Positions 15,762 to 37,154 of a stretch of 64,000 nt of DNA are shown in pieces. Source of the DNA: Nannocystales bacterium. Lineage in GTDB: Bacteria; Myxococcota_A; Polyangia; Nannocystales; Nannocystaceae. The notes under the pieces were generated by a model. It was not told where the DNA came from. It made no database searches and saw nothing but the letters and a program-made list of their open reading frames with translations. Each line of letters begins with the position of its first letter. Positions within the stretch are counted from its first letter, which is position 1. The stretch is from contig JBOEGF010000023.1 of NCBI GenBank assembly GCA_050633305.1, forward strand, positions 128,001 to 192,000, read 5' to 3'. The position numbers and the translations under genes are program-made.

Positions 15762-15767
15762 AAGAAT

Positions 15768-19955: not shown

Positions 19956-19956
19956 G

Positions 19957-20943
19957 TCAGCGGCGCTCCTCGGTTCGCGTGCGAGGGTCGAGCCAGACGT
20001 ACAAGATGTCGACGAAGAGGTTGGCGGCCAGCACCGCGAACGTGATCGTCAAGAACAACCCCTGTAGTAGCGGGAAGTCTTGGTTGCGCACCGCCTGCAC
20101 GAGCAAGTAGCCCTGACCCGGATAGGCAAAGACGATCTCGGTGAGCAGCGAGCCGCTGAGCACGAACCCGAGCGCCATCCCAAACCCGGTGATGCTTGGC
20201 AGCATGGCGTTGCGCGCGACGTAGTGGACCAACACGCGCGTTGCGGAGATGCCCTTGGCTTGAGCGAGCCGGACGTAGGACTCCCCCATCACCGAGATGA
20301 CGTTGTTGCGCATCTGCAGCAACCAGCCCCCAAGCGTGGCGATCACGATCGTGCTTGCGGGGAGAATCGCGTGTCGGATCGCGCTGACGACAAAGTCCAG
20401 ATTCCACCCTGGCGCGACTGCTTCACCGTACGCGTGTCGCAGCGGAAACGCGCCCAGACCCAAGCCCAGGCTCCACAGCGCCAGCATGGCGAGCCAGAAG
20501 TAGGGGAAGGCCCCCAACACCGCAAACGCTGGCGGAAGGATTGCCCCCCACACGCTGTCCCGTCGCCACGCGGTAAGAAGGCCAAGCACGCTGCCGACCG
20601 TGAAGCTGACCACGACCGCGGTGCCGGCAAGGACGACGGTCCAGGCGAGACCGGTCCCGAGGACCGAGGACACGGGCGTGGGGAAGTATGAGACCGAGAT
20701 GCCCAAGTCGCCCCGCAGCAGATGCGAGAGGTACGAGAGGTATTGCTGCCAAAGGGGCGCGTCGGTGAACCCGAATGCTTCCTTGAGGGCCTCCACCGCC
20801 TCGGGTTGCAGCTCTCCCTGGAAACGCGCGACAAGGGCTGTCGCGGGGTCTCCCGGCATCATGCGCGGGATCAGGAAATTCAGGGTCAGCGCGACCCAGG
20901 CGGCCACGCCATAGAAAAACAAGCGTCGGAGAATGAAGCGCAT
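19957..20943 (-). CDS. ABC transporter permease (OppB-like)
   Basis: PGDP, GDLG.S, YVRLAQAKG, TEIVFAYPG.G, DFPL. Confidence 0.95.
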   Translation of the reverse strand: MRFILRRLFFYGVAAWVALTLNFLIPRMMPGDPATALVARFQGELQPEAVEALKEAFGFTDAPLWQQYLSYLSHLLRGDLGISVSYFPTPVSSVLGTGLAWTVVLAGTAVVVSFTVGSVLGLLTAWRRDSVWGAILPPAFAVLGAFPYFWLAMLALWSLGLGLGAFPLRHAYGEAVAPGWNLDFVVSAIRHAILPASTIVIATLGGWLLQMRNNVISVMGESYVRLAQAKGISATRVLVHYVARNAMLPSITGFGMALGFVLSGSLLTEIVFAYPGQGYLLVQAVRNQDFPLLQGLFLTITFAVLAANLFVDILYVWLDPRTRTEERR

Positions 20944-20946
20944 CGT

Positions 20947-22596
20947 TCAACGTGGCTTCAGCTCGGTGAGCACGAGCAGGGTTTCAGGGGTGTCGTTGGG
21001 AGAGAGCTTGGCGTAGGGATTGTCCGCGGTCGGAAAGCCGGTGAACCGGGCGTTGTTGAACGAGCCCCAGGACGGCCCAAGAAACAGAGGAATGACCGGC
21101 GCGGCCTCGACGAAGGACGCTTCGAGAGCGTGCGTGAGCCGCTCGACGTCGGCCGGGTCGAGCGCGGCCTCGAGCTCTTGCAACGTCCGGTCGGTTTGCG
21201 GGGACGAGAACCGGTGCCAGTTGCTTGCCGCGGGCTGACCAAGCGGAAGCTTCTGCGCGGAGCTCAGAAGGTTTCGGTAGAAGATGTAGGGCGAGGGGCC
21301 CTGGATCGACCACGCGATGCAGAGGTCGAACTCGCCCCGCTGGAGGCGGTCGAACCAGGCGGAGAAGTCGTAGGTCTTGACCGAGACCTGCACGCCGATC
21401 GTCTGAAGCTGCCTCGAGATGATCTGGGCCGCTCGAACCCAGTCCGACCAGCCGTTGACGACGTTGAGTTCCAGCTCCAACAGCTCGCCGTACGGGTCGC
21501 GAACGCGTCCTTCATCATCGCGGTGGTAACCGGCGGCCTCGAGTTCTCTTGTCGCGCGCGAGGGGTCGTACGTGACCCAGTCGCCCTGTTCGACCGCACC
21601 CGGGTCACGCAGTTGCGCGTACGCATCGCTCAACCCCGTGGCGTCAGCCGCCCGTGTGTAGTCGAACATCGCCACTTCGGCGAGCACGCTTCGATCGATC
21701 GCTCGGCTCAGTGCCTTGCGGACGGCGGCGTCCTTGAGTGCCGGGTGGGTGTTGTTGGGGTAGAGCATGACCGTGTTGCCCACGAGGGGGAACCAGTAGC
21801 GGTGGTGGGCCGGGTCGCGCTCGACGAACACGCGGTCGATCGCAGGCACGAAGTTCCCCGCCCAGTCGACTTCGCCACGAAGCAGACCCAGCGTCGCCTG
21901 GTCGTTGGAGGGCAGCGCCGGGAACCGCAGTGCCCGAACGGCCGGCTTACCCGGCTGCCAGTAGTGGGGGTTGCGACCCAGCACGTACAGCTGGTCGCGA
22001 AACGTTTCGACTTCGGTGAACGGTCCGGTCGCGACCGGGTTGGGGTTGGCGAAGGTGACGGGATCCTCGATGTCCCGCCACACATGTGCGGGCACGATCG
22101 GCTGATGAGCGATGTAGCCCAGCCCGGGCACGAATGGCTTCGAGAACCGAAACTCCACCTGCAAGGGCCCGCCAGCCTCGACGGTTTCGAGGAAGCTCGC
22201 GGTGTTGTTTAGATCGAGTGCCGGGTTCTCTCGCAACAAGGCGAAGGTCTGCACCACATCGTCGGCGGAAAACGGCTCCCCGTCCGACCAGCGAACCCCC
22301 GGCCGGAGCTCGAAGTGAAGGGTCTTGCCTGCATTCGACCACGCGTACGAGCGTGCGAGCCAAGGTACGTATGCTGACTTCAGAGTGTTGAAGACCAGCA
22401 GCGGCTCGTACACCCCGCCTCGGGTCGGCCACCGGGCGAGATCTTCGGCCACCAGGGGGTTGAAGTTCCGTACCCACGACGCTTGCTGCTCCTTGGACAC
22501 GGTGAGCACCCCGGACTCCACCGGGGAGACCGGGTCCGTGCACCCGCCTGCACCGAGCAGGAGACCGAGCAGGCTTCGCCGAAAGAAACGTCCCAA
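20947..22596 (-). CDS. ABC substrate-binding lipoprotein, family 5 (probably cello-oligosaccharide binding)
   Basis: Lipobox GAGGC, RNFNPL, YEPL, WSDGEPFSADDV, GWSDW; same operon as GH1. Confidence 0.92.
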   Translation of the reverse strand: MGRFFRRSLLGLLLGAGGCTDPVSPVESGVLTVSKEQQASWVRNFNPLVAEDLARWPTRGGVYEPLLVFNTLKSAYVPWLARSYAWSNAGKTLHFELRPGVRWSDGEPFSADDVVQTFALLRENPALDLNNTASFLETVEAGGPLQVEFRFSKPFVPGLGYIAHQPIVPAHVWRDIEDPVTFANPNPVATGPFTEVETFRDQLYVLGRNPHYWQPGKPAVRALRFPALPSNDQATLGLLRGEVDWAGNFVPAIDRVFVERDPAHHRYWFPLVGNTVMLYPNNTHPALKDAAVRKALSRAIDRSVLAEVAMFDYTRAADATGLSDAYAQLRDPGAVEQGDWVTYDPSRATRELEAAGYHRDDEGRVRDPYGELLELELNVVNGWSDWVRAAQIISRQLQTIGVQVSVKTYDFSAWFDRLQRGEFDLCIAWSIQGPSPYIFYRNLLSSAQKLPLGQPAASNWHRFSSPQTDRTLQELEAALDPADVERLTHALEASFVEAAPVIPLFLGPSWGSFNNARFTGFPTADNPYAKLSPNDTPETLLVLTELKPR

Positions 22597-22611: not shown

Positions 22612-22627
22612 AGCAAGAAGCGTGCTC
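22612..22627 (-). promoter_or_regulatory. Putative sigma54 promoter (GAGCACG-cttc-TTGCT) of the ABC/GH1 operon
   Basis: Matches TGGCACG-N4-TTGCW except at the first two bases; about 16 nt before the start codon. Confidence 0.55.
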
Positions 22628-22638
22628 ACCTGAAGGCC

Positions 22639-22696
22639 AACGGTTCCGTGACCAGCCCGCGGAACCGTTCGATCCGCCCGGAAGGCGCGGTTCCGC
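22639..22696. promoter_or_regulatory. Putative activator-binding region: AACGGTTCCG-N11-CGGAACCGTT plus CGGAA-N7-TTCCG
   Basis: Perfect 10-bp inverted repeat; CCGGAAGGnnCGnTTCCGC also occurs at 29603-29621. Confidence 0.55.
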
Positions 22697-22758
22697 GGCC
22701 GACGGTGTGCGACGTCGTCACACAATGTCACCGTCGCCGCGGTTCACTGAAAAAAGTC

Positions 22759-22786
22759 TCATCGGTCCGGCGTGTCCTGTGCCACT
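22759..22786 (+). promoter_or_regulatory. Putative ECF promoter type A: TCATC-N18-CCACT
   Basis: Preceded by an A-tract; upstream of the sigma54 activator gene. Confidence 0.7.
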
Positions 22787-22831
22787 GCGCCACACAGACG
22801 GCTCCCACGTCTGTGACCCTGTTGTCGCAAG

Positions 22832-23950
22832 GTGGGGACCGTCGTGGAGGAGAACGTGCAGCAGACCACCGGCCAGAGCTTCATCTCGGATTCAGGGCCC
22901 GCTCCTTTCGACGAGGCCCCCTCCCCACGACTCGAGGAAGGGTTGGGGCGGGTGATCGGAGCATCCCCCGAGATTCGCCGGATCTATCCGCTGTGCAAGC
23001 GATTGGCGGAGTCGAATCTACCGGTCGTGATCTCGGGGGAGACCGGGACTGGCAAGGAGCTGCTGGCCGAGTCGCTCCACGAGCTCAGCCCCCGTGCCAG
23101 TCGGCCGTTCGTGGTCCTGGACTGCACGGCGATCCCCAAGAACCTCGTCGAGTCGGCGTTGTTTGGACACGAGAAAGGAGCCTTCACGGGCGCGACCCAG
23201 GCTCGCCGAGGCGTTTTCGAGGAAGCCCACGGCGGCACCTTGCTTCTCGACGAGATCGGGGACCTCGAGTTCGATCTCCAGGCCAAGCTGTTGCGCGCGC
23301 TCGAACGCAACGAGATCAAGCGCGTCGGTTCGACGCGACGCGTCCACGTGGACGTGCGGATCATGGCCGCAACGCGTCGCGACCTCGCCGAGATGGTCCG
23401 CGAAGGACGCTTTCGAGATGACCTGTACTTTCGACTCGCAGTCACGCAGGTCGAGCTCCCCCCGCTGCGGCAGCGAACGGGCGATGTGCGCCGCTTGGCG
23501 TCCACGTTCTGGCAGCGGCTTCAGCCGAACACGCCGATGCCCGACACCCTGCTGCCCCGCCTCGAGGCCCGTAGCTGGCCCGGCAACGTCCGTGAGCTGC
23601 AGAATACGGTCGCTCGCTGTGCCGCCTTGGGAGAACTTGCGTGGACGAGAGGGACCGGGGCTCAGGAACACCTGGCACATGCGCCCGCGCCCGCGCCCGC
23701 ACGAGCTCCAGCCGCCGCCGCTCCCGAAGCAGGCTTGGAAGCGAACATGCGGGACTGCTTCGAGGAGATTCTCGGGCGGGGCCTTCCACTGCCCGAAGCA
23801 CGCAAGGAGCTGGTCCGGCAGTTCGAGCGCAGCTATGTCGAGCGCGCGCTCTCGGAGAGTTCGGGGTGCGTGTCGAAGGCCGCCGAGGCGTCCGGAGTGG
23901 GCCCGCGCTACTTCCGGATGATCCGGGCGCGCTCGCGCAAGTCCAGCTGA
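22832..23950 (+). CDS. Sigma54-dependent enhancer-binding protein (AAA+/Fis-HTH) without N-terminal sensor domain
   Basis: GETGTGKE, GAFTGA, LLLDEI, FRDDLYFRL, WPGNVREL, C-terminal HTH; only about 37 aa precede the AAA+ domain. Confidence 0.93.
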   Translation: MGTVVEENVQQTTGQSFISDSGPAPFDEAPSPRLEEGLGRVIGASPEIRRIYPLCKRLAESNLPVVISGETGTGKELLAESLHELSPRASRPFVVLDCTAIPKNLVESALFGHEKGAFTGATQARRGVFEEAHGGTLLLDEIGDLEFDLQAKLLRALERNEIKRVGSTRRVHVDVRIMAATRRDLAEMVREGRFRDDLYFRLAVTQVELPPLRQRTGDVRRLASTFWQRLQPNTPMPDTLLPRLEARSWPGNVRELQNTVARCAALGELAWTRGTGAQEHLAHAPAPAPARAPAAAAPEAGLEANMRDCFEEILGRGLPLPEARKELVRQFERSYVERALSESSGCVSKAAEASGVGPRYFRMIRARSRKSS

Positions 23951-24003
23951 CCGCCCCAACCGCTCGGGCCGGTCGTGCAGCCCACGCGGACCGAGGCGAG
24001 CGT

Positions 24004-25788
24004 TCACCACCAGAACGTCGCGCGGATCATGAACACGTCTTGATCCGGGATTCGGGTCGGCGCGCCGCGATTGCCGGAGTCCTGGTTTCCCGTCGTCGTG
24101 CCGAAGCCATCCGGGGGAACGGCTGCCGAGGGCGGCTGAACGCACAGTTCTGCATCCCCGCCCATGTCGCAGTTGCGCACGTTGTACATGTAGCGCGAGT
24201 ATTGAAGCGAGATCTCCTCTCGGGACAGCCACGCGGTTCGGAAGACCATCCGCGGAGACACCACGGCAAAGGACTGTTCGGGAACGCGCGAGTTGGGCTG
24301 CACGCGATCGTAGCGAGCCCCGACCCCAAACCAAGACAGCGCGCTGAAGAGACCGTTGATGCCGTACTTCATCTTCAGCACGCCATCGACATCCGGGTCA
24401 TCGCTCGCGACCTTGTTGAACATGCCGTAGAGCTTCAGCGAAAAGTCCATGCCCTGGCCGTAGAACGAGTCGCCCTCGAGAACGCGACGAACACTCTGCT
24501 CGTACTGCGCCATCACCGAGTAGATCTCGCCATTGCCGTTGCTCGCTCGCTGCGGGCTGTTGAGGTAGTTGTCCACGATCCCGAAGGTGAACTGCCCGCC
24601 TCCCCGGGAGTGAATGACCTCGATCGCGGGGCCGACGACGCCAGCGGAGACGGCCTTGATGTACGAGAACCCGGCGTAGAGGTAGCCGATCTTTCCCCAG
24701 TCCACGCGAAGGTCCGGCCCCACGACGGTCATCGTTCCGTCGGGCGCATCGACATTCTGTTCGCCGTCTCTATCCTCCTCGCGTGCAAGCGCCTGGAGGT
24801 AGTGCGTCCCCACCTCGATGTTGTCCCGGTACGACAACCCAACATGTCCGTGGTGAAGGAACGTGAATCGGGCGGTGTTGAAGATTCGGGGGTCGGGACG
24901 GCTGGTGCCGATCCCGTGCTCGAAGCTGAGGGTGAAGTCTTTGAGAAGGAACTCGACCTCCCCGGCTTCCCCAATCGCGTGGGTCCGGCCGAACAGATAG
25001 GTGTCGAGCTCTCCTGCGTCGTACCGCCCGGCAGATCCGTATCGGTTGTCGAACGAGCCGATCTTCCACATGAGCCGGACGTTCTTCGCCTTGAGGTTCG
25101 GCGTGAGCGTGACGAACCCCTGGGCGATACCGAACTGAGCGTTGTCTTCCTTCCACGCCGCGTCGGTGAAGTTGAAGCCCTGCAGCGAAACCGTGCCGGT
25201 CGCCACGCTGTTGCCATAGCTGAAGTACAGCTCGGACCAATCTCGCGGGTTGTGCTGCGTGTACTGGTAGCTCAGGTATTGGTCGTCGGGGATGACAGGG
25301 TAGTGCAGCGTTCGCTCGCTTTGCCCCTCAGCCGGCTCGTCGCGCTGACCGACCCCCAGCCGCATGGGCGCACGAATGTAGCCGTGAAAGTCGAAGCCCC
25401 AGTCTCCACCTTGGTCTTGGTCGTCTCCCCCCCCACGCGAGCTCAGGTTGCGACGCTGAACGCGTCCTCGTCCTTTCTTTCGTTCCCGGCTCGGAAACGC
25501 GTTGGGACGGGAGGTCGGTACCGGCGTCCCGGCGGTGTTCGACATCTCCACGGTGGGGAGCGCCGCGCGGTTGTCGACCACGGGCTCGGAGGTCTCGGAC
25601 GGTTCGTCGGGGGCCTCGCCGGTGGGGTCCGCTGGGGCGTTCACTTCCGCCGTCGCGTCCTCGGTCGCCACCGGGGTCTCAGCGGCAGTCTCGGTGTCGG
25701 CAGCGGCCTCCACCTCTGGCGATGCGGGAGCTTCCTCCGGCGCAGGCTCGACGAGCGAGAGAAGCATCGGCAACAGTGCAACGTTCAT
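24004..25788 (-). CDS. Hypothetical outer-membrane beta-barrel protein (candidate carbohydrate porin)
   Basis: Signal peptide, acidic P/E linker, FDFHGYIR (resembles LamB strand 1), aromatic-rich strands, C-terminal RATFWW; ATGA overlap with GH9. Confidence 0.7.
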   Translation of the reverse strand: MNVALLPMLLSLVEPAPEEAPASPEVEAAADTETAAETPVATEDATAEVNAPADPTGEAPDEPSETSEPVVDNRAALPTVEMSNTAGTPVPTSRPNAFPSRERKKGRGRVQRRNLSSRGGGDDQDQGGDWGFDFHGYIRAPMRLGVGQRDEPAEGQSERTLHYPVIPDDQYLSYQYTQHNPRDWSELYFSYGNSVATGTVSLQGFNFTDAAWKEDNAQFGIAQGFVTLTPNLKAKNVRLMWKIGSFDNRYGSAGRYDAGELDTYLFGRTHAIGEAGEVEFLLKDFTLSFEHGIGTSRPDPRIFNTARFTFLHHGHVGLSYRDNIEVGTHYLQALAREEDRDGEQNVDAPDGTMTVVGPDLRVDWGKIGYLYAGFSYIKAVSAGVVGPAIEVIHSRGGGQFTFGIVDNYLNSPQRASNGNGEIYSVMAQYEQSVRRVLEGDSFYGQGMDFSLKLYGMFNKVASDDPDVDGVLKMKYGINGLFSALSWFGVGARYDRVQPNSRVPEQSFAVVSPRMVFRTAWLSREEISLQYSRYMYNVRNCDMGGDAELCVQPPSAAVPPDGFGTTTGNQDSGNRGAPTRIPDQDVFMIRATFWW

Positions 25789-28130
25789 GGATTGGCTCCG
25801 CTCGTTTCATCGAGGAACGCAAGGACCCAGACCAAGGGAGCGTTCCAGTTGATCGCGATCTCGTTGGTGGACCAGGACTCGATGTGGTCCACGAAGCACC
25901 GCTGCGCCGGACACCCTCCAAGTCCCGCCGACTTCGCATAGGGGTCCTGAATCGCGGAGTTCGGACCGCCCGAGACGATCCCCGGCGGCGGCCCCGGATA
26001 GTCTGGGTCTTTCTGTTTGGCCCAGAATCGGTGGTGTGGGTTTTCCAGGGGGTTTGCGCCGTACCCGGTCACGTACGACTGCCACACCGGGTTGCGACCG
26101 AGGATGTAGTTCATGGCCTCGGCGGTCGCGTCGAGCAGGGCGTCGTCCTTGGAAAACGCGTAGCCCAGGCCCAACACCACCGCGTTGTTGAGCACGAGTG
26201 AGTTGGAACCCCAGGGGTAGTTTCCGGCGCCATCGGGGGCAAGCGGCACGCGATACCCCTCGCGCTCGACCTGCTTGGCGATCGACCGCGCGACTGCCAC
26301 GACAGCCTCGCGTGCTGCCTTTGCGTCCGCTGGTGCTCGCCTAGCGCCGGCCGTCGCGAGCGAGAGTGTCCCCAAGGATCCAACGAGCTGCCAGTTCATG
26401 GGCGCCGCGTGTCCCCCCTGTGCCCGCGTGGGTCCCAGCACCACGCCAAAGTGCTCGCCCTGTGCGTCCTTGCGGTACTGCGCGTCTCCGGTCGAAAGGT
26501 ACAGCTCGATTGCTGCCCAATAAAACTCGTCGGAAACTCGGCTGTCTTCGTACGGCCCGCCGCCCACGTTGTCGTCGCCAGAGGCGTGGAGGTCGGGAGT
26601 CGTCTTTGCCGCAGCATAGGCGCGCTTCGAGGCGGTCAAGCATCGACGGGCGAACGTGGGGTCGATCGTTTCGTACACCCGCGCGGCTTGGGCAGTCACC
26701 GCTGCGAGATTCAGCGTTGCGGCGGTACTCGGCCGGTGGAGGAAGCGTTTGTCCGTAGCGTCGGGCGGGGACAACGGCAGGCCCGCCCAAGCCTCCTCGT
26801 GCACCTTGTGAAACGCCATGCCGGCCCACTTGGGGTGTCCCGCGGGCACCTGCATCCTCAGCAGGAATTCGAGCTCCCAGCGGACCTCGTCCAGCAGGTC
26901 GTTGGTGCCGTTGCCCGACTCGGGGATGTTCGCCGTTCCGTCGGCGAACGCGTTCGCTCCGGCGCCCACTTCGGTCATGCGCTCGTAGGCGTTGAGCAAC
27001 GTCCACACCGCGATTCCGGCGTTGACGACGTACTTCCCGTGATCGCCGGCGTCGTACCAGCCGCCAGAGACGTCAAACGTTCCCGTGCAGTCCAAGGCGG
27101 GTTGGCAGGAAACACTCCGGTCACTTTGATGCCCAGCGCCACGAGCCCACCGGGCCTCGCCGGCAAACGGCATCGCGATCTCGGTGCCGCTGCGGTTGTG
27201 AAAGAAGAAACGCAGCGCGTCGAGCTTCATCGAGCGGTAGAGGTGCCCTTGGATCGCGAACGCATCGCTCTGCTCCTCACCTACCCGCACGACGTAGCCC
27301 TCGCCCGTCGTTTTCACCGAGCTGAAGTCGACCCAGTGGACATGCTCTCCCGACCCCACATCGGGCCCAAAAACGGTCGTCATGCCTGTCGCCACCTCGA
27401 CGCCCTCGGCATCCAACAGAGCCCAAGCGACCGGTATCTGGCCGGGGTCACGCAACGTCGCGAACTTGGGGCGCGATGGCAGGTAACCCACCTGGTTCAC
27501 GCGAATCGGGGGGGCACGCAAGTGGTCGGGCGGTGGAGGCGGCGTGTATTCGGGGTCCGAGAGCGCCACGTCATCGAAGCAAACGCGCGTGGGCACCTTT
27601 GCCGCGAGTGGCCCGCCCATCAGGAAGCTCAGCTCTGCGGCATCGTCCTCACCCCGCATGATGAAATGCCCCACAAATCGCTGCGGCTCGGTGCCGACCT
27701 CGACCTGGCTGGCCCAATACTCGTCGTACGGCGGGCCCACCTGCGCGACCTTGGGCCACAGCTGAGTGGGTGGTGTTGCGCTCGCGCTGAACTCGACACG
27801 GTACGCGTGTCCGGCGGTCAGCGTGAGGGCACGATGACGGACTTGCGCATCCCAGGCGGTTTCTCCCCCCGCGTCCAAGGCGACACACAGCGCCCCGTCA
27901 TCAAGCTCAGCCCGACCGCTGGCAAGCTCGACCATCGACGCTTTCCAGGGCGCGAGCGTTCCATCTTCGAACGCACCGTTGCGGATGAGGTTGTGGTCGC
28001 CGTCGATGATCGGAGCCGGCCCGTCATCGTGAACGGTCGCCACCGAGGCAGAGCCCGGCGCGTTGGAAGCATCCGCCGCACCGCAACCGGCAACGAGTGC
28101 GAGGAGAAGGGCTGGGTTGAAGGTCTTCAC
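25785..28130 (-). CDS. GH9 cellulase lipoprotein (CBM4_9 + Ig-like + GH9)
   Basis: Lipobox LVAGC, NLIRNGAFE (CBM4), IRVNQVGY, GGWYDAGDHGKY, NPHHRFW, NEIAINWNAPL. Confidence 0.95.
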   Translation of the reverse strand: MKTFNPALLLALVAGCGAADASNAPGSASVATVHDDGPAPIIDGDHNLIRNGAFEDGTLAPWKASMVELASGRAELDDGALCVALDAGGETAWDAQVRHRALTLTAGHAYRVEFSASATPPTQLWPKVAQVGPPYDEYWASQVEVGTEPQRFVGHFIMRGEDDAAELSFLMGGPLAAKVPTRVCFDDVALSDPEYTPPPPPDHLRAPPIRVNQVGYLPSRPKFATLRDPGQIPVAWALLDAEGVEVATGMTTVFGPDVGSGEHVHWVDFSSVKTTGEGYVVRVGEEQSDAFAIQGHLYRSMKLDALRFFFHNRSGTEIAMPFAGEARWARGAGHQSDRSVSCQPALDCTGTFDVSGGWYDAGDHGKYVVNAGIAVWTLLNAYERMTEVGAGANAFADGTANIPESGNGTNDLLDEVRWELEFLLRMQVPAGHPKWAGMAFHKVHEEAWAGLPLSPPDATDKRFLHRPSTAATLNLAAVTAQAARVYETIDPTFARRCLTASKRAYAAAKTTPDLHASGDDNVGGGPYEDSRVSDEFYWAAIELYLSTGDAQYRKDAQGEHFGVVLGPTRAQGGHAAPMNWQLVGSLGTLSLATAGARRAPADAKAAREAVVAVARSIAKQVEREGYRVPLAPDGAGNYPWGSNSLVLNNAVVLGLGYAFSKDDALLDATAEAMNYILGRNPVWQSYVTGYGANPLENPHHRFWAKQKDPDYPGPPPGIVSGGPNSAIQDPYAKSAGLGGCPAQRCFVDHIESWSTNEIAINWNAPLVWVLAFLDETSGANP

Positions 28131-28864
28131 TTGGCGTCACACCCGTAGAACGAGACATCGTCGATCCAGATGTCGAACTCGGTCTGCGCCGCGTTGAACT
28201 GAAACTGGACCCCATAGATCGCGGCGCTGTCGATGCTGCCCGGCCGCGGCGCCCCCCATCCGGGCATCTGCTTCATCGAGTCGAACGGCACGACGAACTG
28301 CTGCCAGTGCTCTTCGAGTTCGACCGCCTTGCCGAAGTCGTTGAAGCACTCTGTGCACTGACCACCCTCGGCGTCGGTCGAGACGTCGGGGATCTTGACG
28401 CGAAGCGACGCACCACTGTTCGCGCTCCTGCGGGCGAAGAACGTGATGCCCTCGTAGGCGCTTGCGTCGTAGGGCGCCTTTGGGTCGACGAAGTTGAGTC
28501 CGTAGCCGGCGAAGACGATTGTCCCGGCGGCTGTCTTTCCCTGGAACCTCGCGGCGTGGAGCGACCCGTTCGCCCCTCCCACGGCCTGGGAGAAGGTTCC
28601 GCCGAGTCGTCCTGCGACCGGCTCGACCGTGGAACCCGCTTCGTCGAGGAAGGTGTAGACGTATCCTCCGCGCCCGCCGTGTTCGAGCAAACGGTGGTCG
28701 TTGTCCTCGCTATCCTCGATGACCGCGGATCGGTCGCAACCGCCGAGGTCCATGCGAGAGACCGCGGGAGCCGGCTCGGACGTTCCGCCCGAAGAGGCCG
28801 AACACGAGGCCAGAGCCACAACGAGGACCAAGGGGGTGATGCGGGAACTCATCTCGACTTGCAT
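28127..28864 (-). CDS. Lipoprotein with CBM11-like domain (paralog of 14803-15684)
   Basis: Lipobox ALASC; IEDSED..YTFLD..YDASAYEG..WQQFVV..DDVSFY. Start could be 28852 or 28870. Confidence 0.78.
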   Translation of the reverse strand: MQVEMSSRITPLVLVVALASCSASSGGTSEPAPAVSRMDLGGCDRSAVIEDSEDNDHRLLEHGGRGGYVYTFLDEAGSTVEPVAGRLGGTFSQAVGGANGSLHAARFQGKTAAGTIVFAGYGLNFVDPKAPYDASAYEGITFFARRSANSGASLRVKIPDVSTDAEGGQCTECFNDFGKAVELEEHWQQFVVPFDSMKQMPGWGAPRPGSIDSAAIYGVQFQFNAAQTEFDIWIDDVSFYGCDAK

Positions 28865-28879
28865 CGACACACTCTTCGA

Positions 28880-29461
28880 CTAGAAATCGACGCAGTAGCC
28901 GAACATCGCCACTGCGCCGGGTGCTAGGGCGGCGTTGAAGTCGACCCCGGAGAAGGTCGCCAGGCCGTCGACGACATCTTCGACCACGACGTTCCAGGAC
29001 TGGTTGAGCACACCGCCGATGTCGAGATCGATCACCCACGTAATCGACATCTCCGAAACGTTCGTGACGATGACGTCGTTGCACTCCCCGGTCTCCCACG
29101 CGGTCTGCTGCATCACCTGAACCTCGAGCAAGCCGTCGTTGCTGGTCTCGAAACTGCCCGAGCTCGAGCCTCCGACCTCCGAACTTCCGGTCCCTCCGGT
29201 GCTCGTCGAGCTCTCTTCGCTCGGTGCCGAAGAGGAGGAGGTCGTGGTGGTTGTGCTCGCCGTCGTCGACGTCGTCGTGGTCGTCGTGGTCGTCGACGTG
29301 GTGCTCGCGCTCGAGGTCGATCCGGTTCCCTCCACAGGAAGTTCCGCGGTGTCCGAGTTGCTCCCGAACACGGACGGCCCATCGGTCCGAGGTGCTCCAA
29401 CGCACCCGGGCAGCGAGACCGCCATGCAGGGGAGCGCGAGCCAGATCGAGATGCGCCGCAT
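28880..29461 (-). CDS. Lipoprotein with Thr/Ser linker and C-terminal CBM2-like domain
   Basis: Lipobox SLPGC, poly-T/S linker, WETGEC..VTN..W..QSWN..FNAALAPG..FGYC. Confidence 0.8.
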   Translation of the reverse strand: MRRISIWLALPCMAVSLPGCVGAPRTDGPSVFGSNSDTAELPVEGTGSTSSASTTSTTTTTTTTSTTASTTTTTSSSSAPSEESSTSTGGTGSSEVGGSSSGSFETSNDGLLEVQVMQQTAWETGECNDVIVTNVSEMSITWVIDLDIGGVLNQSWNVVVEDVVDGLATFSGVDFNAALAPGAVAMFGYCVDF

Positions 29462-29477
29462 GACGAGAGAGTTCAGA

Positions 29478-29493
29478 AGCACGCGCCGTGCCA
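29478..29493 (-). promoter_or_regulatory. Putative sigma54 promoter (TGGCACG-gcgc-GTGCT) of the CBM2-CBM11-GH9-porin operon
   Basis: GG-N10-GC spacing with near-consensus; about 17 nt before the ATG. Confidence 0.75.
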
Positions 29494-29565
29494 TGACGGA
29501 ACAACCCGAGGTTCGTGTCGTTGGCGCACAGACCGGATCGCAGGCTTCCCGGAACCGGAAGCGTC

Positions 29566-29621
29566 CGTTCCCTTGCCGGAGCCGACCGAACCCGCTCGAC
29601 CGCCGGAAGGATCGTTTCCGC
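29566..29621. promoter_or_regulatory. Putative activator-binding region including CGGAA-N7-TTCCG (29604-29620)
   Basis: Aligns with 22641-22696 in motif content and spacing. Confidence 0.55.
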
Positions 29622-29784
29622 TTTCGGTTCGACGACCCACGCCGGGGCTCGACGGACGTCTTCGGCGCGGGCGACTCCGACGCCGGACTGGACCGCCCTT
29701 TGCACTGAAGCCAACCGAAATGGACTCTCGAGCGGTGCAACTCTGTCCGACCCGCGACTGTGCGCAGGTGCGAGCGACAGCCCG

Positions 29785-30282
29785 ATGATCATCGTGGTCG
29801 TCGGGGTTTGCGGCTCTGGAAAGAGCACGCTGGGGAGGGCGCTCGCGCGGCGTCTTGCAGCGCGATTCCACGATACGGACCACCGACGGCCGGCTGGAGG
29901 GTCTGTGTCCGAATGGCTCGGACCGGTGGCAGACGTCCTTCAAGCCCCAGGGCCTCGCGAGCACCTGGTCGTCGCCTGCAGGGCCCTGCGCCAGGAACAA
30001 CGCGATACCCTCCGCCGAGCGTGCGGTCAGCTTCGCCTCGTCTTCGTCCACCCCTCGTCGCTCACGCTGGCGGAGCGGTACGATGTGCGCCGGCTCCAAA
30101 CCATGGGGCGGGTCCCTTTGCTCGCCGCGCAGTTGCGGGACCTCGAACCCCCCAGCCCCCGAGAGGGCGCGCTGTTTGTCGACAACGAGGGGCCGGTCGA
30201 AACGGTTGCGGACCGGGTCGTGGCGTCTTTGATGCTCGATGCCTCCGCGTCGCTCGACCTCCAGCGCCGCACGGACTCGTGA
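29785..30282 (+). CDS. Gluconokinase-like (GntK/IdnK family), divergent
   Basis: MIIVVVGVCGSGKST, VVACRAL, QLRDLEPP. Confidence 0.8.
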   Translation: MIIVVVGVCGSGKSTLGRALARRLAARFHDTDHRRPAGGSVSEWLGPVADVLQAPGPREHLVVACRALRQEQRDTLRRACGQLRLVFVHPSSLTLAERYDVRRLQTMGRVPLLAAQLRDLEPPSPREGALFVDNEGPVETVADRVVASLMLDASASLDLQRRTDS

Positions 30283-30328
30283 CCCCCGCCCTCTTGCACC
30301 GCTCTCCTCCCTTCGCCCAGGAGGCCTC

Positions 30329-31408
30329 ATGTTGACGGCGACTGCCGTGGGCGCTTGCCTCTGCGCGCTGTTGGTCGTGCAGCCACCCGAGCCGGCGGCT
30401 CCCCGACCGACCCGCGTCGAGCTCGGCCTCGCCGCCGAAGACGAGCTGTTGAACGATCAGGACGTGGAGCTGACGCTCGCAGCCCATCTCGCCGACGCCG
30501 AGCTCCACGCCCATGTCGACGCCCTGGGCCCCGGCGATCTGTTGGACCGCATCGCATGGGCCGAGGCCAACGTGGACGCCGACGTTCTGGCCGTATTCTT
30601 TACGGAGCGCGTCGACGATGGCGGGCGCCGCCTGTATCTGCTGGAGCCGCAGAGCGGCGGGCTGTGGGTCCGGGAACTACCCCGCACCGCCGATGACGAC
30701 CTGCTCCTCGAGACCCTGGGCGCGATGGTGCGCGGAATCTCGACGGCGCTGCATGAGGGGCCGCCGCGCGGCATGACTGAGGTCGCGCGTCCCGACCAGA
30801 TCCAGCCCGACTCCGACTCCGACTCCGAGCCGGTTGCTCCCGTCCAGCCTGCGCCGGATCCCGAGCCGGTTGCTCCGCCGCCCCGGACGCTCGTGACGGT
30901 CACCGGGGCGTACCTCGGCAGCATGTTCGCCCGGACGCACCCCTGGCAAAGCGGAGGCGCACTCGGGGTGAACGTGGAGCTGCCGGCCCACGCTGTCCTT
31001 GGCATTCGGGTCGGGGTGTTTGCCCCGGCTCGGGTCGGGGGCCCACCGGACCTCGATATGTGGAGAATCCCGGTTCGGCTGCACGGGGCGTATCGATTCC
31101 TGACCCGCTCGGACGTTCGCCCCGAAATCGGCTTGGGCATGGTGGTGGGCACGCTCACCTGGCGCGGCGCGAAGGCTCAGGCCGGGTCAAACGCGCAGCC
31201 GGGGCAGGCGGTGCGAATCGCGCTCTCTCCGCAGGCTGGGATCCAGTGGAGAGTCGTGGGCGGGCTCGGGGTTCACCTCAACACGATGCTGGACGTGTGG
31301 CTGTCCAACGCGGACCTCGTTGTCGAAGATGGTTCGGCGCGCCGTTCGCAGCTCCGCCCGTACGCGGTCACCGTGGCGCTCGAGGCGGGCCTCCAATACA
31401 CATTTTAG
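30329..31408 (+). CDS. Hypothetical exported protein: N-terminal domain, Pro/Asp linker, C-terminal beta-barrel
   Basis: AGGAGG RBS, signal peptide, terminal EAGLQYTF. Confidence 0.75.
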   Translation: MLTATAVGACLCALLVVQPPEPAAPRPTRVELGLAAEDELLNDQDVELTLAAHLADAELHAHVDALGPGDLLDRIAWAEANVDADVLAVFFTERVDDGGRRLYLLEPQSGGLWVRELPRTADDDLLLETLGAMVRGISTALHEGPPRGMTEVARPDQIQPDSDSDSEPVAPVQPAPDPEPVAPPPRTLVTVTGAYLGSMFARTHPWQSGGALGVNVELPAHAVLGIRVGVFAPARVGGPPDLDMWRIPVRLHGAYRFLTRSDVRPEIGLGMVVGTLTWRGAKAQAGSNAQPGQAVRIALSPQAGIQWRVVGGLGVHLNTMLDVWLSNADLVVEDGSARRSQLRPYAVTVALEAGLQYTF

Positions 31409-31469
31409 GCCAGCGGAGCGGCTAAGATGGACCACGCGCGGACGGGTCCGGCCATGCTCTCGAATTTTG

Positions 31470-31498
31470 TCATCCATTTTGCCCTGTTCGGATCCTCT
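31470..31498 (+). promoter_or_regulatory. Putative autoregulatory ECF promoter type A: TCATC-N19-CCTCT
   Basis: Ends 10 nt before the ATG at 31509 of the ECF gene; AT-rich upstream. Confidence 0.72.
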
Positions 31499-31508
31499 GG
31501 ACCGGCAG

Positions 31509-32144
31509 ATGACGCTCGCGCACGCAGCTCTGACGTGGGATTGGCCGATGGCTGAACCCGTCAATGTGCACGCGATCGATCTCGCGCTCGCCGAAGCCGC
31601 GGCTCGCAAGGAACCCGAAGCGTCCCGTGTCCTCGCCGCCCGTGCCTTGCGGCTGGTGCGGCCGATCGTTCGCTCGATTTGCTCGGACCGGTCCGAGCAA
31701 GACGATGCGCTTCAGCTCGCGCTCATGGAGGTGCTGCGGGCGACCGGGAGTTACCGCGGAACAGGTTCCCTCGACGGTTGGATCCGACGCATCTCAACCC
31801 GCGCTGTGATGCGTGACGCGAAGAAGAACCGGACGTCACGGATGCGCGTCGAGAGCACGGACACTCCGTACAGTCGCGAGGGTGTTTCGATGAACCTGAC
31901 GATGCTCGAGACGCTCCCGCGTCCCCTCGAGTTCTACCTGGGCGCGCTTCCTGAGGCCCAACGGGTCGCACTGGTTCTGCGACATGCAGTCGGACACAGC
32001 GTCGTCGAGGTCGCCGACATGACCGCGGCACCCGTTCCCACGGTCCGATCCCGGATCAAGAAAGCACAGCAAGAGCTGCGCCGACTCATCCAGCGCGACC
32101 TCAACCTCGGCCTCTCCGCAACGCAGGGGATCAAGACCTCATGA
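31509..32144 (+). CDS. ECF RNA polymerase sigma factor
   Basis: DDALQLALMEVL, YRGTGSLDGWIRRI, LPEAQRVALVL, SVVEVA..PVPTVRSRI. Confidence 0.93.
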   Translation: MTLAHAALTWDWPMAEPVNVHAIDLALAEAAARKEPEASRVLAARALRLVRPIVRSICSDRSEQDDALQLALMEVLRATGSYRGTGSLDGWIRRISTRAVMRDAKKNRTSRMRVESTDTPYSREGVSMNLTMLETLPRPLEFYLGALPEAQRVALVLRHAVGHSVVEVADMTAAPVPTVRSRIKKAQQELRRLIQRDLNLGLSATQGIKTS

Positions 32145-33412
32145 GTCCGCAGTCCGATTTTCGTGATGCACGCTGGCGGAAGCTCCGTGACGCGCAGGCG
32201 CTCGATGAGCCTCTCGACGCACACGACGAGGAGTTCCTGTCCTCGTACGAACCCCGAGGCGCGGCAGAGCAGGCCGAGGCCGAGCTGATGGGTGCCCTCG
32301 TGGGGCTTGCCGATGGCGACTCCAAGCGGCCGGGCGGGATCGCCGATGATGCTGCGCTTCTCGACCGTGTCGTGGAGGGCTACTGTAACGAGGCGCCGCG
32401 AGCCCTGACCGCTGAGTCGTCCGACGCCTCGAACACCAAGCCCGGACGACGCGGCTGGATTGTCGCCGTCATCGGCCTGGGGGTGACCGCGGCGGCAGCT
32501 CTTGTGGCGGTGGCTTTGGGCGCAACAACGCCCACACCCCGTACGCATGCCCCCATGCTGGCGGGCATCCCCGAACCTGCCTGGGCTCCGCCCGAGGCAC
32601 CCCGACCGAGCGAAGAGGGGCCCAGCGACCAACGCTCGGGGTTCGTCCTCGCCTCCGGTGGACTTCAGGCCGCTGCGCCGAGCGGGGCCCGCAAGCCGGC
32701 CTCTGGAGCGCTGCGGCACGGCACGTACCACGTCGGCGACGAAGAAACCTGTATCGCCTACGACACAGCGACCACCTGCTTGGGGCCCGGCGCAACGGTG
32801 CGTATCTCGAACACCGGTGTCGATGTGCTGGAACTCGTCGACGGCGATGCGACGGTGACACTTGAGGCTCCGACCCAACGCGTGTTCACGGTCGTTGTCG
32901 CGGGAGCCCGCTACGAGGCACGCGAGCCCACGGTCACGCACCTTTCCTTCGCCCGAAAGACTCGCGCGGCTTCAGTCAGCGTCGAACGCGGGTCGATCTC
33001 GAGGGTCGACGGCGCACGGCGGACGGCAATGACGGCAGCCCGCGCTCGGCCCAAGGCCAAGATTCCGGACGCCAAAGCGTTGCTGCAGCAAGCCCGGATC
33101 AAACGCGCGACGGGAGACACCGCAGGTGCGACCAAGGCCTACGCCATGCTCTTGGAGCACTACCCCAAAGCACCTGCGTCGGCGCCCAGTATGGTGACCC
33201 TCGCGGAACTGTACCTCTCGCAAGGCCAAGCCAAGCGAGCGCTGAAGTGGTTCGACCGCTACTCCAAACGTGGGGGGTCGCTGGACGAAGAGGCTCGGTA
33301 CGGTGCCATTCGGGCCCTGAAAAAGTTGGGTCGGCGCGGCGAAGCCAGCAAGCGCGCCGATGAATTTCGCAGACGCTACCCGAACAGCGGCTACGCTTCC
33401 AAGCTCCCGTGA
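32141..33412 (+). CDS. Putative anti-sigma factor (TM + FecR-like beta domain + TPR)
   Basis: ATGA overlap with the ECF gene; TM WIVAVIGLGV; LELVDG..VSVERG; C-terminal TPR ending YPNSGYA. Confidence 0.8.
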   Translation: MSPQSDFRDARWRKLRDAQALDEPLDAHDEEFLSSYEPRGAAEQAEAELMGALVGLADGDSKRPGGIADDAALLDRVVEGYCNEAPRALTAESSDASNTKPGRRGWIVAVIGLGVTAAAALVAVALGATTPTPRTHAPMLAGIPEPAWAPPEAPRPSEEGPSDQRSGFVLASGGLQAAAPSGARKPASGALRHGTYHVGDEETCIAYDTATTCLGPGATVRISNTGVDVLELVDGDATVTLEAPTQRVFTVVVAGARYEAREPTVTHLSFARKTRAASVSVERGSISRVDGARRTAMTAARARPKAKIPDAKALLQQARIKRATGDTAGATKAYAMLLEHYPKAPASAPSMVTLAELYLSQGQAKRALKWFDRYSKRGGSLDEEARYGAIRALKKLGRRGEASKRADEFRRRYPNSGYASKLP

Positions 33413-34584
33413 ACGCCATGCGATCGTTGCGTTGGCTGGTGTTGGGAAGTCTGTGGCTCGCCGGGTGCCGGGTCGAATTCGTCACAGGGCAGCTCGAAGC
33501 CGAAGGGTTCGAGACCGAACCCACGCAGACCTCGTCGACTGGATCATCGACCGTTGCGGGCTCCACGTCTCTGGAGACCGACGGTCTCTCCTCGGAGAGC
33601 GCGGCGGGAGAAACATTCCTCGATACGACCGGCCCTCGGCCGGAATGTGAGGCGCCCAAGGGCCACTCGATCTGCGACACGGACGATGATCCGATGCACG
33701 CAATTGGGCTCGGCTGTGACTCGGGTCCCTTCGACTCGACGCCTGTCTTCGAAGCCTCGCTCACCTCGCCCGACCCAGCCGGGTTTCGTGTCGTGCGGCA
33801 GTTTGGCAACGATGCATTCGTGCCCCGCGAGGGGGTCAGTCTGCTTGTGCTCAGCACCGGCTCCCTTCCCGAACCGGACCAGAGCGACGTATTGCTGGTC
33901 CCGATGGGGCAAGCGGGCGAGCCGGGCCCAGGCAACGGCAACCCAGATGGCGCGGCCCTCCCGGCCCCCATCCTCGCGGAGTCGGGGACCAACGGGACGC
34001 CCTTTCAGGGATGCGACGGCGTGGGTGATTGCAGTGACTCCCTGCCGGCGGCGTTCGGTGAGGGTCCCGCGAACGACCTGGTGTGGCTTCAGTTCGAGGT
34101 CGATGTGCCGCCCGGGACGTTTGGCTATCGCGCCGACATTGCGTGGTTCTCTGCCGAGTTTCCGAGCAAGGTCGGCCAACCCAACGACTTGTTCGTCTGG
34201 TGGCAGGAGAGCGAGTCTTTCACCGGAAATGTCGCCCACCTGCAAGACGGCACAGCCATGTCCGCGACGAACCTAGTCGAGACGATCATCGACCGCGGCA
34301 TCGTGGGCAACAACGCTGCGCTGCTCGGTACCGGGTTTGAGGGGACAACCCCCTCGGAGTGCAGCGTGCCCGGTGGGACGTATGCAAACTGTCCCCGAGG
34401 CGCCGGGACGGACTGGCTCGAGCTCGACGGATCCATCACGCCCGGGGAGCGCCTCCAGATCACCGTCGCCCTGTTCGACCTCGGATCCGCCGATATCGAC
34501 ACGACGGTGATGGTCGACAACTGGCGGTGGAACTGCGACGGCTGCAGGACCGGCGATGACTGTGGCATCCACCCGCCGCTGTGA
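33409..34584 (+). CDS. Cys-rich lipoprotein, choice-of-anchor L-like
   Basis: Lipobox WLAGC; PREG.S.LVLSTG, FSAEFP, NDLF, GAGTDW, FDLG..DTTVMVDNWRW. Confidence 0.7.
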   Translation: MNAMRSLRWLVLGSLWLAGCRVEFVTGQLEAEGFETEPTQTSSTGSSTVAGSTSLETDGLSSESAAGETFLDTTGPRPECEAPKGHSICDTDDDPMHAIGLGCDSGPFDSTPVFEASLTSPDPAGFRVVRQFGNDAFVPREGVSLLVLSTGSLPEPDQSDVLLVPMGQAGEPGPGNGNPDGAALPAPILAESGTNGTPFQGCDGVGDCSDSLPAAFGEGPANDLVWLQFEVDVPPGTFGYRADIAWFSAEFPSKVGQPNDLFVWWQESESFTGNVAHLQDGTAMSATNLVETIIDRGIVGNNAALLGTGFEGTTPSECSVPGGTYANCPRGAGTDWLELDGSITPGERLQITVALFDLGSADIDTTVMVDNWRWNCDGCRTGDDCGIHPPL

Positions 34585-34676: not shown

Positions 34677-36044
34677 TCAACCTGCGGGCGGAAAGCTCAC
34701 CAAGTTGAGCCCAGCACCGGTCATGTCCGAGTATGTGTAGGGCGTGTCGAGTCCGTCTACAGTCAGCTCGATGTTGTAGCCGTTGGGGTCGATCTTGTGC
34801 GCCCGCCCGAACGGGGGCGCACCCGCCCACTGGTCGACCACCCACACAAACCCATCAATGTCGATGCTGACCCCCACCGGGATGTTGCACTCCGGCAGCG
34901 TGATCGGCGTGACCGTCCCGCTCTCCGCGTCGTAGTGCGCGACCCCGCAGACCTCATTGGTGGCGATCCACGCGTCGCCATCGCCGTCGACGGCCAGCCC
35001 GCGTAGCGTTCCGTCGATCGTGACAACCTCCTCGAAGGACTCCGCGTCGGCATCGAATCGCAGCAACCGGTTGTCGAATTCCGCGGTCACGTAAGGGTTC
35101 CCGCTCTTGTCCATCGCGATTCCGTAGAAGCGGGTCACGCCCGAGGGGCCTTCGTATCGGTCGACGGCCATCGTTTCGAAGTCGACCCGGAACAACGCGG
35201 CATTGTCCTTCCCGATCATCCAGAAGTTTCGGTTCTGATCGACCGCGCCGCCGTACATGCCACCCCACTCGGCCGAGCCGTCCCAGCTCGGGATCGAGGT
35301 CTCATCCTCGACCGTGCCCGTTTCTCCATCGAGTCGCTGGACGTGGACTGTCATGTCCGCTCCCATGGCGCTGACCCACAGGCTTGGCACCCCTGCGCAA
35401 TCCTCCGCCTGTGGGTCGCTTCCTGAGTCCCAGGCCGCTGCGCGTGCACCGGCCCAAAGCCCCGTGGTCCACAACACGCACTCGTCATCGCCCCACGCGA
35501 GGACGTCGTCGGGACCGGTCGAGGTCTGGATCTGGCCGTCGTTGTTGGAGTCCACGCAGCCGTTTTTCGGATCGGCCGCGATCTTCACGACCGACCCTCC
35601 GTCGCCTCGATTGAGAACCGCGACGTCTCCGACAAGGTTCACGGTCGTGCGGGAGGGATCGGTCGTCGTCGCCGGGCCGGTTCGGTAACGGCCGATCTCG
35701 TTGCCCGTGACGGTGTCGATCTTGCTGACCGTGCCCGCCGGAGAGTTCGCGATCCAGATGTTGCTGAACGCGACCTCGGACAAACCGCCGCTCCCCCCTT
35801 TGCTGCCCGGGCAGCCGGGCCCAGAGCCGGACCCGTTCGACCCAACATCGAGTTTCACCCCGGTACCGCCATCGTCCTCCTCAGTGGTTTCGGCCCCGGA
35901 CCCACTCTCGGTCCCGGCCGCACTGATGGGAGACGCCGTTTCCGTCCCTCCGCCTTCAGCTCCAGGGGTGAACCCCTGTCCGTCGTTCTCCACTCCGCAC
36001 CCGAGGGTGAGCACACTTACCGTCCAACACAGGCTCCACCGCAT
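34677..36044 (-). CDS. Lipoprotein with beta-propeller (Vgb/NHL-like) domain
   Basis: Lipobox LTLGC; IWIANS.GTVSKIDT, PSRTTV, GIAMD, GLAVD, PYTYSDMTG. Confidence 0.8.
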   Translation of the reverse strand: MRWSLCWTVSVLTLGCGVENDGQGFTPGAEGGGTETASPISAAGTESGSGAETTEEDDGGTGVKLDVGSNGSGSGPGCPGSKGGSGGLSEVAFSNIWIANSPAGTVSKIDTVTGNEIGRYRTGPATTTDPSRTTVNLVGDVAVLNRGDGGSVVKIAADPKNGCVDSNNDGQIQTSTGPDDVLAWGDDECVLWTTGLWAGARAAAWDSGSDPQAEDCAGVPSLWVSAMGADMTVHVQRLDGETGTVEDETSIPSWDGSAEWGGMYGGAVDQNRNFWMIGKDNAALFRVDFETMAVDRYEGPSGVTRFYGIAMDKSGNPYVTAEFDNRLLRFDADAESFEEVVTIDGTLRGLAVDGDGDAWIATNEVCGVAHYDAESGTVTPITLPECNIPVGVSIDIDGFVWVVDQWAGAPPFGRAHKIDPNGYNIELTVDGLDTPYTYSDMTGAGLNLVSFPPAG

Positions 36045-36055
36045 GGTGTTCGTGC

Positions 36056-36083
36056 AGTGCGATACCGCGGCGCGGGATGATGA
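36056..36083 (-). promoter_or_regulatory. Putative ECF promoter type A: TCATC-N18-GCACT
   Basis: Ends 11 nt before the ATG at 36044. Confidence 0.65.
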
Positions 36084-36099
36084 AATTATTCTCCGGGAC

Positions 36100-37074: not shown

Positions 37075-37082
37075 GTCAGGCC

Positions 37083-37146: not shown

Positions 37147-37154
37147 GCGCACCC

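Follow-up and report, generated by a model that had tools for sequence, protein, structure and literature searches.

In Pseudomonas syringae and Erwinia the HrpR/HrpS-to-HrpL relay uses bacterial enhancer-binding proteins (bEBPs) without a sensor domain, which together with sigma54 transcribe the gene of an extracytoplasmic function (ECF) sigma factor. The sigma factor cascade is mentioned in PMC5109040. Sensor-less bEBPs of the PspF and HrpR/S kind are controlled by expression or in trans. In SigI/RsgI of Clostridium thermocellum and in the ECF/anti-sigma pairs of Bacteroides polysaccharide utilisation loci, an alternative sigma factor with an outward-facing membrane anti-sigma factor controls glycoside hydrolase (GH) genes, and we know of no intermediate bEBP/sigma54 tier described for either system. 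In this paper we analyse a cluster of genes for cellulose utilisation in a Nannocystales bacterium, in which an ECF sigma factor, a sensor-less bEBP and sigma54 may be joined in the opposite order. The window, that is, the whole stretch analysed, covers 64,000 nucleotides (G000:C23:128001-192000) of assembly G000, which has 11.0 Mb, 66% G+C and 90 contigs. The relatives used for comparison (G002, G004, G005, G020 and others) all belong to one family, G020 being from another genus.

Two further systems bear on the comparison. As stated in passages of PMC6615313, citing Nie et al. 2016, the activator CelR of Clostridium controls cellobiose catabolism together with sigma54. In Myxococcus xanthus the bEBP gene pexR and its target diverge, the short intergenic region containing several upstream sites with dyad symmetry, and the authors propose in the sections consulted that the pexR mRNA is leaderless, with at most 5 nt between transcription start site and start codon (PMC12754779). 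The decisions by which cellulolytic myxobacteria-like organisms deploy cellulases are essentially undescribed. In a 2025 survey of sigma54 regulons (PMC12316311) the term 'ECF' does not occur in the main text, and the parts covered make no mention of cellulases. Among the main texts of the open-access literature we found no paper on an ECF sigma factor acting through a bEBP, and none in which sigma54 or an ECF controls the cellulases of myxobacteria.

We propose that a membrane-spanning tetratricopeptide repeat (TPR) anti-sigma factor holds the ECF sigma factor and would release it on an extracytoplasmic cue. The ECF would then transcribe its own operon and six further units, namely those of GH8, GH5, a Cip1-like protein plus a propeller protein, two lipoproteins and the bEBP. 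The sensor-less bEBP, controlled chiefly by its amount, would bind repeats of the GGAAC-N5-CTTCC type and, with sigma54-RNA polymerase, would open three neighbouring promoters. These would drive an Opp-type ATP-binding cassette (ABC) transporter with GH1, a set of lipoprotein, carbohydrate-binding module (CBM)-like, GH9 and porin-like genes, and a gluconokinase-like plus outer-membrane protein (OMP)-like operon. The initial annotation had described such wiring as a plain two-tier cascade. The wiring gains from conservation in two genera, a near-unique upstream repeat, the promoter-to-start geometry and an ECF promoter of the same class as its presumed targets; the plain two tiers stand only in part, as a third conserved sigma54-type promoter would drive the operon directly upstream of the ECF gene. 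We judge the link from bEBP to GH9 operon to be quite likely and that from ECF to bEBP to be reasonably likely, and for the link from bEBP to ABC-GH1 operon we lean slightly in favour. For the whole chain from ECF through bEBP to the sigma54 operons the balance is even. That scouting enzymes would come first, as the initial annotation supposed for GH5 and GH8, is a conjecture about timing.

An activator without a sensor domain

The domain content of the bEBP, like the motifs described below with their positions and conservation, can be read directly from the DNA. The gene lies at 22856-23950 (+), within an open reading frame (ORF) that opens at 22832. Its product was earlier described as having an intact GAFTGA and no REC, GAF or FHA domain, and this holds: the GAFTGA loop (in the context HEKGAFTGATQ) and a Walker A motif are present, and there is no match to REC, GAF, FHA or PAS. 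Gene families were assigned by Pfam and NCBIfam scans of the cluster proteins, in which Sigma54_activat (PF00158) matched residues 41-207 of the bEBP with E 5.8e-67, and AAA_lid_14 matched as well. The AAA+ core begins at residue ~33. An in-frame stop at 22814-22816 leaves 32-45 residues ahead of the core, so there is no room for a sensor domain. Translation probably starts at GTG 22856, because orthologs keep the Shine-Dalgarno (SD) sequence GGAGGAG and the codons GTG-CAG-CAG. Against the PspF model TIGR02974 the protein aligns from end to end (33-356 on 1-332 of 336) and scores 253.8 bits against an equivalog cut-off of 443.55 bits. Solved chains of NifA, ZraR, LuxO, NtrC1 and PspF match it at E 1e-52 to 1e-70. 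G000 has a single copy of rpoN (one Sigma54_DBD match, E 7e-64, in an open frame of 501 amino acids) and 54 matches to the AAA+ family of sigma54 activators, of which 43 have E < 1e-30. The large number of activators and the Atlas neighbours of two cluster proteins point to Myxococcota.

The orthologs in G002 (82%), G005 (70%) and G020 (64%) are equally short, and an N-terminal regulatory domain is absent in these three and in the G011 homolog. GAFTGA is retained in G002, G020 and G054; G005 has GSFTGA, and the distant G011 homolog GAFPGA. The closest sensor-bearing relative found is an FHA-AAA+-helix-turn-helix (HTH) protein of G054 (contig C254, locus L024 7829-10639), with 63% identity; a Ser/Thr protein kinase gene follows it directly, and it does not lie in a cellulose cluster. 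We treat this protein as a probable paralog or ancestral type, and the comparison suggests that the short form arose through loss of the FHA domain. The sensor-less G011 homolog (contig C25, locus L025 3588-12034; 52% identity) belongs to a cluster for sugar catabolism, where it is accompanied by genes for a CelD_N-GH9 protein, KDPG aldolase, glucose-6-phosphate dehydrogenase, 6-phosphogluconolactonase, a ROK kinase and a polysaccharide deacetylase, and one weak promoter site was seen at its locus. A scan of genome contigs with the bEBP gave only generic activators (38-53% identity), and their loci were not used.

Some points concerning the bEBP weigh against the proposed relay. Its C-terminal HTH_8 match is weak (E 7.9e-4, 19.5 bits, under the Pfam cut-off of 22 bits); the C-terminal block is conserved in the orthologs. 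A sensor-less bEBP may also be restrained in trans by an unseen partner; no negative partner of the PspA or HrpV type was matched by Pfam or NCBIfam among the cluster proteins scanned, several of which have no family at all. Finally, the G004 ortholog reads in two frames (G004:C11:350116-351184, locus L026 9117-10182), comprising residues 10-196 and 195-375. This split reflects a frameshift or an assembly error, and the promoters of the gene and its target boxes are intact.

ECF-type promoters, the ECF sigma factor and its putative anti-sigma factor

Each of the ten transcription units in the 27-kb cluster has one of two promoter classes, seven being ECF-type and three sigma54-type. The ECF-type class has the form W-rich-TCATC-N18/19-CC[A/T]CTGCG and precedes the bEBP gene, the ECF operon, the genes for GH8, GH5 and the Cip1-like protein, and two lipoprotein genes. 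The bEBP had been credited with such a promoter ('type A'), and the element is indeed found at 22747-22789 (+) as ctgaaaaaagtcTCATC-N18-CCACTGCG, A-rich ahead of its TCATC and followed by a leader of ~65 nt that includes the GGAGGAG sequence; it recurs before GH8 and GH5. In an alignment with a mean column identity of 52% it is invariant in all five genomes. A sigma54-box candidate on its other strand (TGGCACAGGACACGC, 22770-22784, -) was rejected: G002, G004 and G005 lack it, and it amounts to the conserved CCACTGCG element read from the opposite side.

The promoter of the ECF operon, TTTTG-TCATC-N19-CCTCTGGA at 31458-31501 (+), stands 7 nt before the ATG at 31509; it is of the same class as the six other sites and is conserved in G002, G004, G005 and G020. 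The sites before GH8, the propeller gene and the two lipoprotein genes are also kept in relatives. Those of GH8 (37155-38444, +, start GTG 37155; site 37107-37149, +) and of the Cip1-like gene (36100-37074, -, followed by a beta-propeller gene at 34677-36140, -) lie back to back at 37080-37149 and have in common the palindrome TGAAGAAATCTTCA, which the Cip1-like promoter uses on the opposite strand. The palindromic segment at 37107-37122, ATGAAGAAATCTTCAT, is the upstream half of both promoters and offers an ATG on each strand, and gene-calling software would be likely to place the starts of the two genes within it, overlapping by 16 nt. In relatives, GH8 has 78-80% identity across its full length. 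The GH5 gene (39803-41008, -) has its promoter at 41016-41059 (-), and the CBM-like lipoprotein gene (14803-15684, -) at 15731-15773 (-). The other lipoprotein gene (38451-39614, -) has a variant, T9-TCAGT-N18-CCTCTGCC, at 39621-39663 (-). A T-run at 39640 was considered as a GH5 terminator and rejected, since T-rich-TCA[CG][CT]GG-N16/17-CCTCTGC with a following ATG is conserved in G002 and G004, which makes it a promoter variant.

At five of the seven ECF-type sites the start codon lies 5-7 nt past the CC[A/T]C octamer, and leaderless mRNAs are therefore predicted for these units. The leaders of the other two are ~65 nt, with SD, for the bEBP and ~45 nt for the CBM-like lipoprotein.

The loose form of the motif has 92 matches genome-wide, seven of them within 25 kb in this cluster against ~0.2 expected by our estimate, although the one that falls within the GH9 gene, on its opposite strand, is probably spurious. 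We built a weight matrix solely from the bEBP-upstream element of G002, G004, G005 and G020, with one of the four training strings one base out of register. Among the distinct sites in G000 the top score went to the bEBP site (38.0 bits), with GH8 in second place (23.4) and GH5 in sixth (21.3); 135 windows scored > 12 bits.

The ECF sigma gene (31509-32144, +) encodes a protein with Sigma70_r2 and Sigma70_r4_2 only (Pfam), which scores 54.2 bits against the TIGR02937 sigma70-ECF model (cut-off 42.9). Its G020 ortholog, with 55-60% identity, lies within the same cluster. We infer that the TCATC promoters are served by this sigma factor rather than by one of its paralogs, and several observations weigh against it. 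The TCATC...CCAC motif is unlike the common ECF consensus GGAAC...CGT. There is at least one paralogous ECF with a similar promoter, so another sigma factor could read the bEBP promoter. The closest paralog in G000, on contig C5, has 47% identity and carries the same T-rich-TCATC type of promoter both on itself and on its divergent neighbour. A few leaderless sites of the same class also occur elsewhere in G000 (C24:359302, C38:80760, C43:60105). From these observations it can be argued that the bEBP drives the sigma54 promoters and that the TCATC-N18-CCAC promoters are read by a paralogous ECF, or by the housekeeping sigma factor with an activator, with no tier leading from the ECF at 31509-32144 to the bEBP. 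We consider this unlikely, given that the loose matches (seven of the 92) are concentrated in the cellulose cluster, that the promoter of the local ECF itself is of the same class in all five genomes inspected, and that the ECF ortholog remains in the cluster in a second genus. In addition, the four relatives searched that have no bEBP ortholog (G001, G003, G006, G029) have ECF homologs of only 40-49% identity and no GH9 at E 1e-50; given the physical linkage of the genes, this co-occurrence of bEBP, GH9 and ECF carries little weight.

The C5 paralog (G000:C5:101443-103200) is preceded by an OMP-like gene, as at the cellulose locus. The paralog has a T8-CATCC promoter, as has a divergent gene whose product bears a twin-arginine-like leader, and the whole looks like a sister module.

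The ECF operon (31509-34584, +) comprises the sigma factor gene, a gene for a single-pass TPR protein (32141-33412, +) and a lipoprotein gene (33409-34584, +), with overlaps of 4 nt between genes. The TPR protein has a conserved N-terminal part of 55 residues, one membrane helix and a periplasmic TPR part; no anti-sigma Pfam domain was matched in it. When the ECF was modelled in complex with residues 1-105 of this protein, the score was 0.69, the best control being 0.00. In the benchmark 116 of 157 solved complexes, and 2 of 215 mismatched pairs, scored at least as high. Agreement between the three runs covered at least 84% of contacts, and the predicted local distance difference test (pLDDT) value of the partner was at least 74; likeness to solved ECF/anti-sigma complexes may explain the pass. 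In the model the contacts involve sigma region 2 as well as region 4. We regard the TPR protein as the candidate cognate anti-sigma factor of the ECF.

Sigma54-type boxes and candidate activator sites

The ABC-GH1 and GH9 operons had been assigned sigma54 boxes and no good ECF-type match, and both statements are borne out. Before the GH9 operon (24004-29461, -, ATG 29461) stands TGGCACGGCGCGTGCTT at 29477-29493 (-), with the canonical form TGGCACG-N4-GTGCTT. Before the ABC-GH1 operon (15768-22596, -, start TTG 22596), which encodes an SBP_bac_5 lipoprotein, two permeases, two Opp-type ATPases and a GH1 beta-glucosidase, stands GAGCACGCTTCTTGCT at 22612-22627 (-), of the form GAGCACG-N4-TTGCT and 14 nt from the start codon. 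A third sigma54-like box, absent from the initial annotation, is TGGACCGCCCTTTGCA (TGGACC-N5-TTGCA) at 29689-29704 (+); 15 nt later follows the ATG at 29720 of the gluconokinase-like/OMP-like operon (29720-31408, +), which lies directly upstream of the ECF.

The boxes at 29477-29493 and 29689-29704 have GG at -24 and GC at -12 with 10 bases between, and are conserved in four genomes. The GH9-operon box is invariant in all four aligned sequences (G000, G002, G004, G020; mean column identity 59%). In the same four genomes the ABC box keeps GCACG-N4-TTGCT, and its distance to the start codon is constant at 14 nt despite a diverged spacer sequence; in G020 GH1 follows a box of this type immediately, without intervening transporter genes. 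The third box, CTGGACCGCC-NN-TTGC[A/T], is also kept in these four genomes before the gluconokinase-like gene, and in G000, G002 and probably G004 a conserved ORF of 22 codons begins 15 nt after it.

This short ORF (29720-29788, +) encodes MDSRAVQLCPTRDCAQVRATAR, and its stop codon overlaps the ATG of the gluconokinase-like P-loop gene (29785-30282, +). It is kept in G002; G004 keeps an ATG 15 nt past the box, and in G020 a box of the third type directly precedes the kinase gene.

For eleven of 18 strict sigma54 boxes in G000 (examples are C1:85021, C13:38405, C15:239485 and C27:82144) a start codon follows at a distance of 11-17 nt, compared with 12.6% among 14,502 random positions; all three cluster boxes show this spacing. 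Their transcripts would have leaders of ~4-6 nt, and sigma54 promoters of G000 seem as a rule to give leaderless or near-leaderless mRNAs. A loose count, across the genome, of NNGCA-N6-NTGC boxes close to a start gave mostly noise and was dropped.

Within the window, matches to the sigma54 box are at chance level (60 found against 58.45 expected from shuffles, at up to two mismatches), and the weight of the boxes thus rests on their conservation. It might then be held that the motifs are chance or lineage-conserved sequence without a regulatory role and that housekeeping promoters of an unrecognised kind run the cluster, the more so as all the relatives compared are of one family and conservation is partly shared ancestry. 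This is very improbable. The conserved islands stand out at mean column identities of 52-59% and coincide exactly with boxes and repeats, the spacing to the start codons is fixed, and the intergenic regions of the cluster gave no sigma70-like promoter and no strong terminator on inspection.

More can be said against the ABC box. GG at -24 is near-invariant in sigma54 promoters, and here its place is taken by AG (G000, G002, G004) or CG (G020). The pattern GCACG-N4-TTGCT occurs 29 times in G000 against ~24 expected from base composition by our estimate, which by itself is chance level. Moreover, the element contains a perfect 5-N7-5 palindrome in G000 (GAGCA-N7-TGCTC), such as a different regulator might bind. 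Sigma54 dependence would then be confined to the GH9 operon and perhaps the gluconokinase-like operon. We hold this to be improbable: the element is conserved in four genomes with its fixed 14-nt distance, its geometry equals that of genuine boxes in G000, the palindrome is imperfect in G020, and two repeats of the kind found at the GH9 promoter lie 35-70 nt upstream.

These repeats are candidate sites for the bEBP. Three of them, GGAA[CGA]-N5-[CG][TA]TCC, lie at 29535-29619 between the divergent sigma54-type promoters of the GH9 and gluconokinase-like operons, and the two upstream of the ABC box, GGAAC-N5-GATCC and GGAAG-N5-GTTCC, lie at 22661-22694, 19 nt apart from start to start. Their centres are ~65 to 175 nt upstream of the predicted transcription start sites, and one repeat is an invariant island in all four genomes. 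The pattern has 339 matches in 11 Mb and forms only three clusters of at least two sites within 150 nt; two of these flank the bEBP gene and the third is in coding DNA without a box. A caution applies to these counts. Visual inspection of the GH9 region gave the pattern, which was then 'found' in that region and in the ABC region; only the fact that it recurs at the latter and is rare elsewhere counts as independent support.

A return path to the ECF can also be considered. Between the end of the gluconokinase-like/OMP-like operon and the ECF gene lie 100 nt that contain no terminator, and for this reason a positive feedback loop is possible. In a closed circuit the ECF/anti-sigma pair would be the only sensor, the bEBP, having lost its FHA domain, would act by dosage and with sigma54 fire three near-leaderless operons, and readthrough into the ECF operon would lock the system on. 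Such an ECF-bEBP-sigma54-ECF loop, the mirror image of Hrp and present in at least two genera, we put forward tentatively, as a somewhat doubtful extension of the relay.

The cellulose locus and its place among known systems

From its sequence, the stretch from 14.8 to 41 kb is a locus for the utilisation of beta-glucan/cellulose. The GH9 operon encodes a Thr/Ser-rich lipoprotein (28880-29461, -), a CBM30/11-like protein (28127-28870, -), a CBM4_9-CelD_N-GH9 protein (25785-28130, -; all three domains by Pfam) and a porin-like protein (24004-25788, -). The initial annotation had named CBM2, CBM11, GH9 and porin here. The CBM2 label falls away, as there is no CBM_2 Pfam match in the correct frame. 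The CBM11 label survives as a predicted CBM30/CBM11/CIA30-like fold, from an Atlas structure only, and the porin label likewise takes its support from the Atlas only. The OMP-like protein (30239-31408, +) has no family (best OmpW, E 0.31), is rich in glycine and aromatic residues in its C-terminal half and ends in YTF. Its G020 ortholog ends in YSF and resembles an outer-membrane beta-barrel, and the gene always stands immediately before the ECF gene. Elsewhere in the window a gene for a phosphofructokinase of 480 residues adjoins the cluster (13112-14554, +). Outside the cluster are two S8 subtilase-like genes and one for a CHAT-domain protein of 1008 residues (4807-10114 and 44895-49016), an FHA protein gene (43516-44739), and a pair encoding a BlaI-type repressor (Penicillinase_R) and a BlaR1-type M56 peptidase sensor (60295-62528, +).

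If the relay is as proposed, the locus would offer a compact and portable parts list, with one ECF/anti-sigma pair, one dosage-controlled activator and ten promoters of two classes. It would also be a natural example of a reversed Hrp relay and a case of sigma54 promoters yielding leaderless mRNAs. Every element of the relay is suited to reconstitution in E. coli, though the organism is known only as assembled DNA.

The locus resembles the CelR system, as described in passages of PMC6615313, in that sigma54 and a dedicated activator would act on genes for beta-glucoside uptake and hydrolysis. It differs in that CelR is there a Firmicutes activator with phosphotransferase system (PTS) regulation domains, sensing by phosphorylation, whereas here the activator is sensor-less, the transporter is of the ABC type and an ECF would stand upstream. 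With PexR, in the sections consulted of PMC12754779, it shares the divergent layout of bEBP and target with dyad repeats. Like E. coli PspF, the bEBP has an AAA+ part, with a putative HTH part, and no regulatory domain, but it scores far under the PspF equivalog cut-off, and no PspA-like gene is among the cluster proteins scanned. As in SigI/RsgI and the Bacteroides pairs, an alternative sigma factor with a membrane anti-sigma factor would preside over glycoside hydrolase genes, but those systems act directly on the enzyme genes. The Hrp relay likewise joins a sensor-less bEBP, sigma54 and an ECF in one relay over a dedicated gene cluster. Here, in contrast, the order is reversed, with an ECF-type promoter on the bEBP gene and sigma54 promoters on the structural operons, and there is a possible return path through the sigma54-type promoter upstream of the ECF. 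Relays between sigma factors are already known, and the order from ECF to bEBP to sigma54 in a cellulose locus would be a new variant of them.

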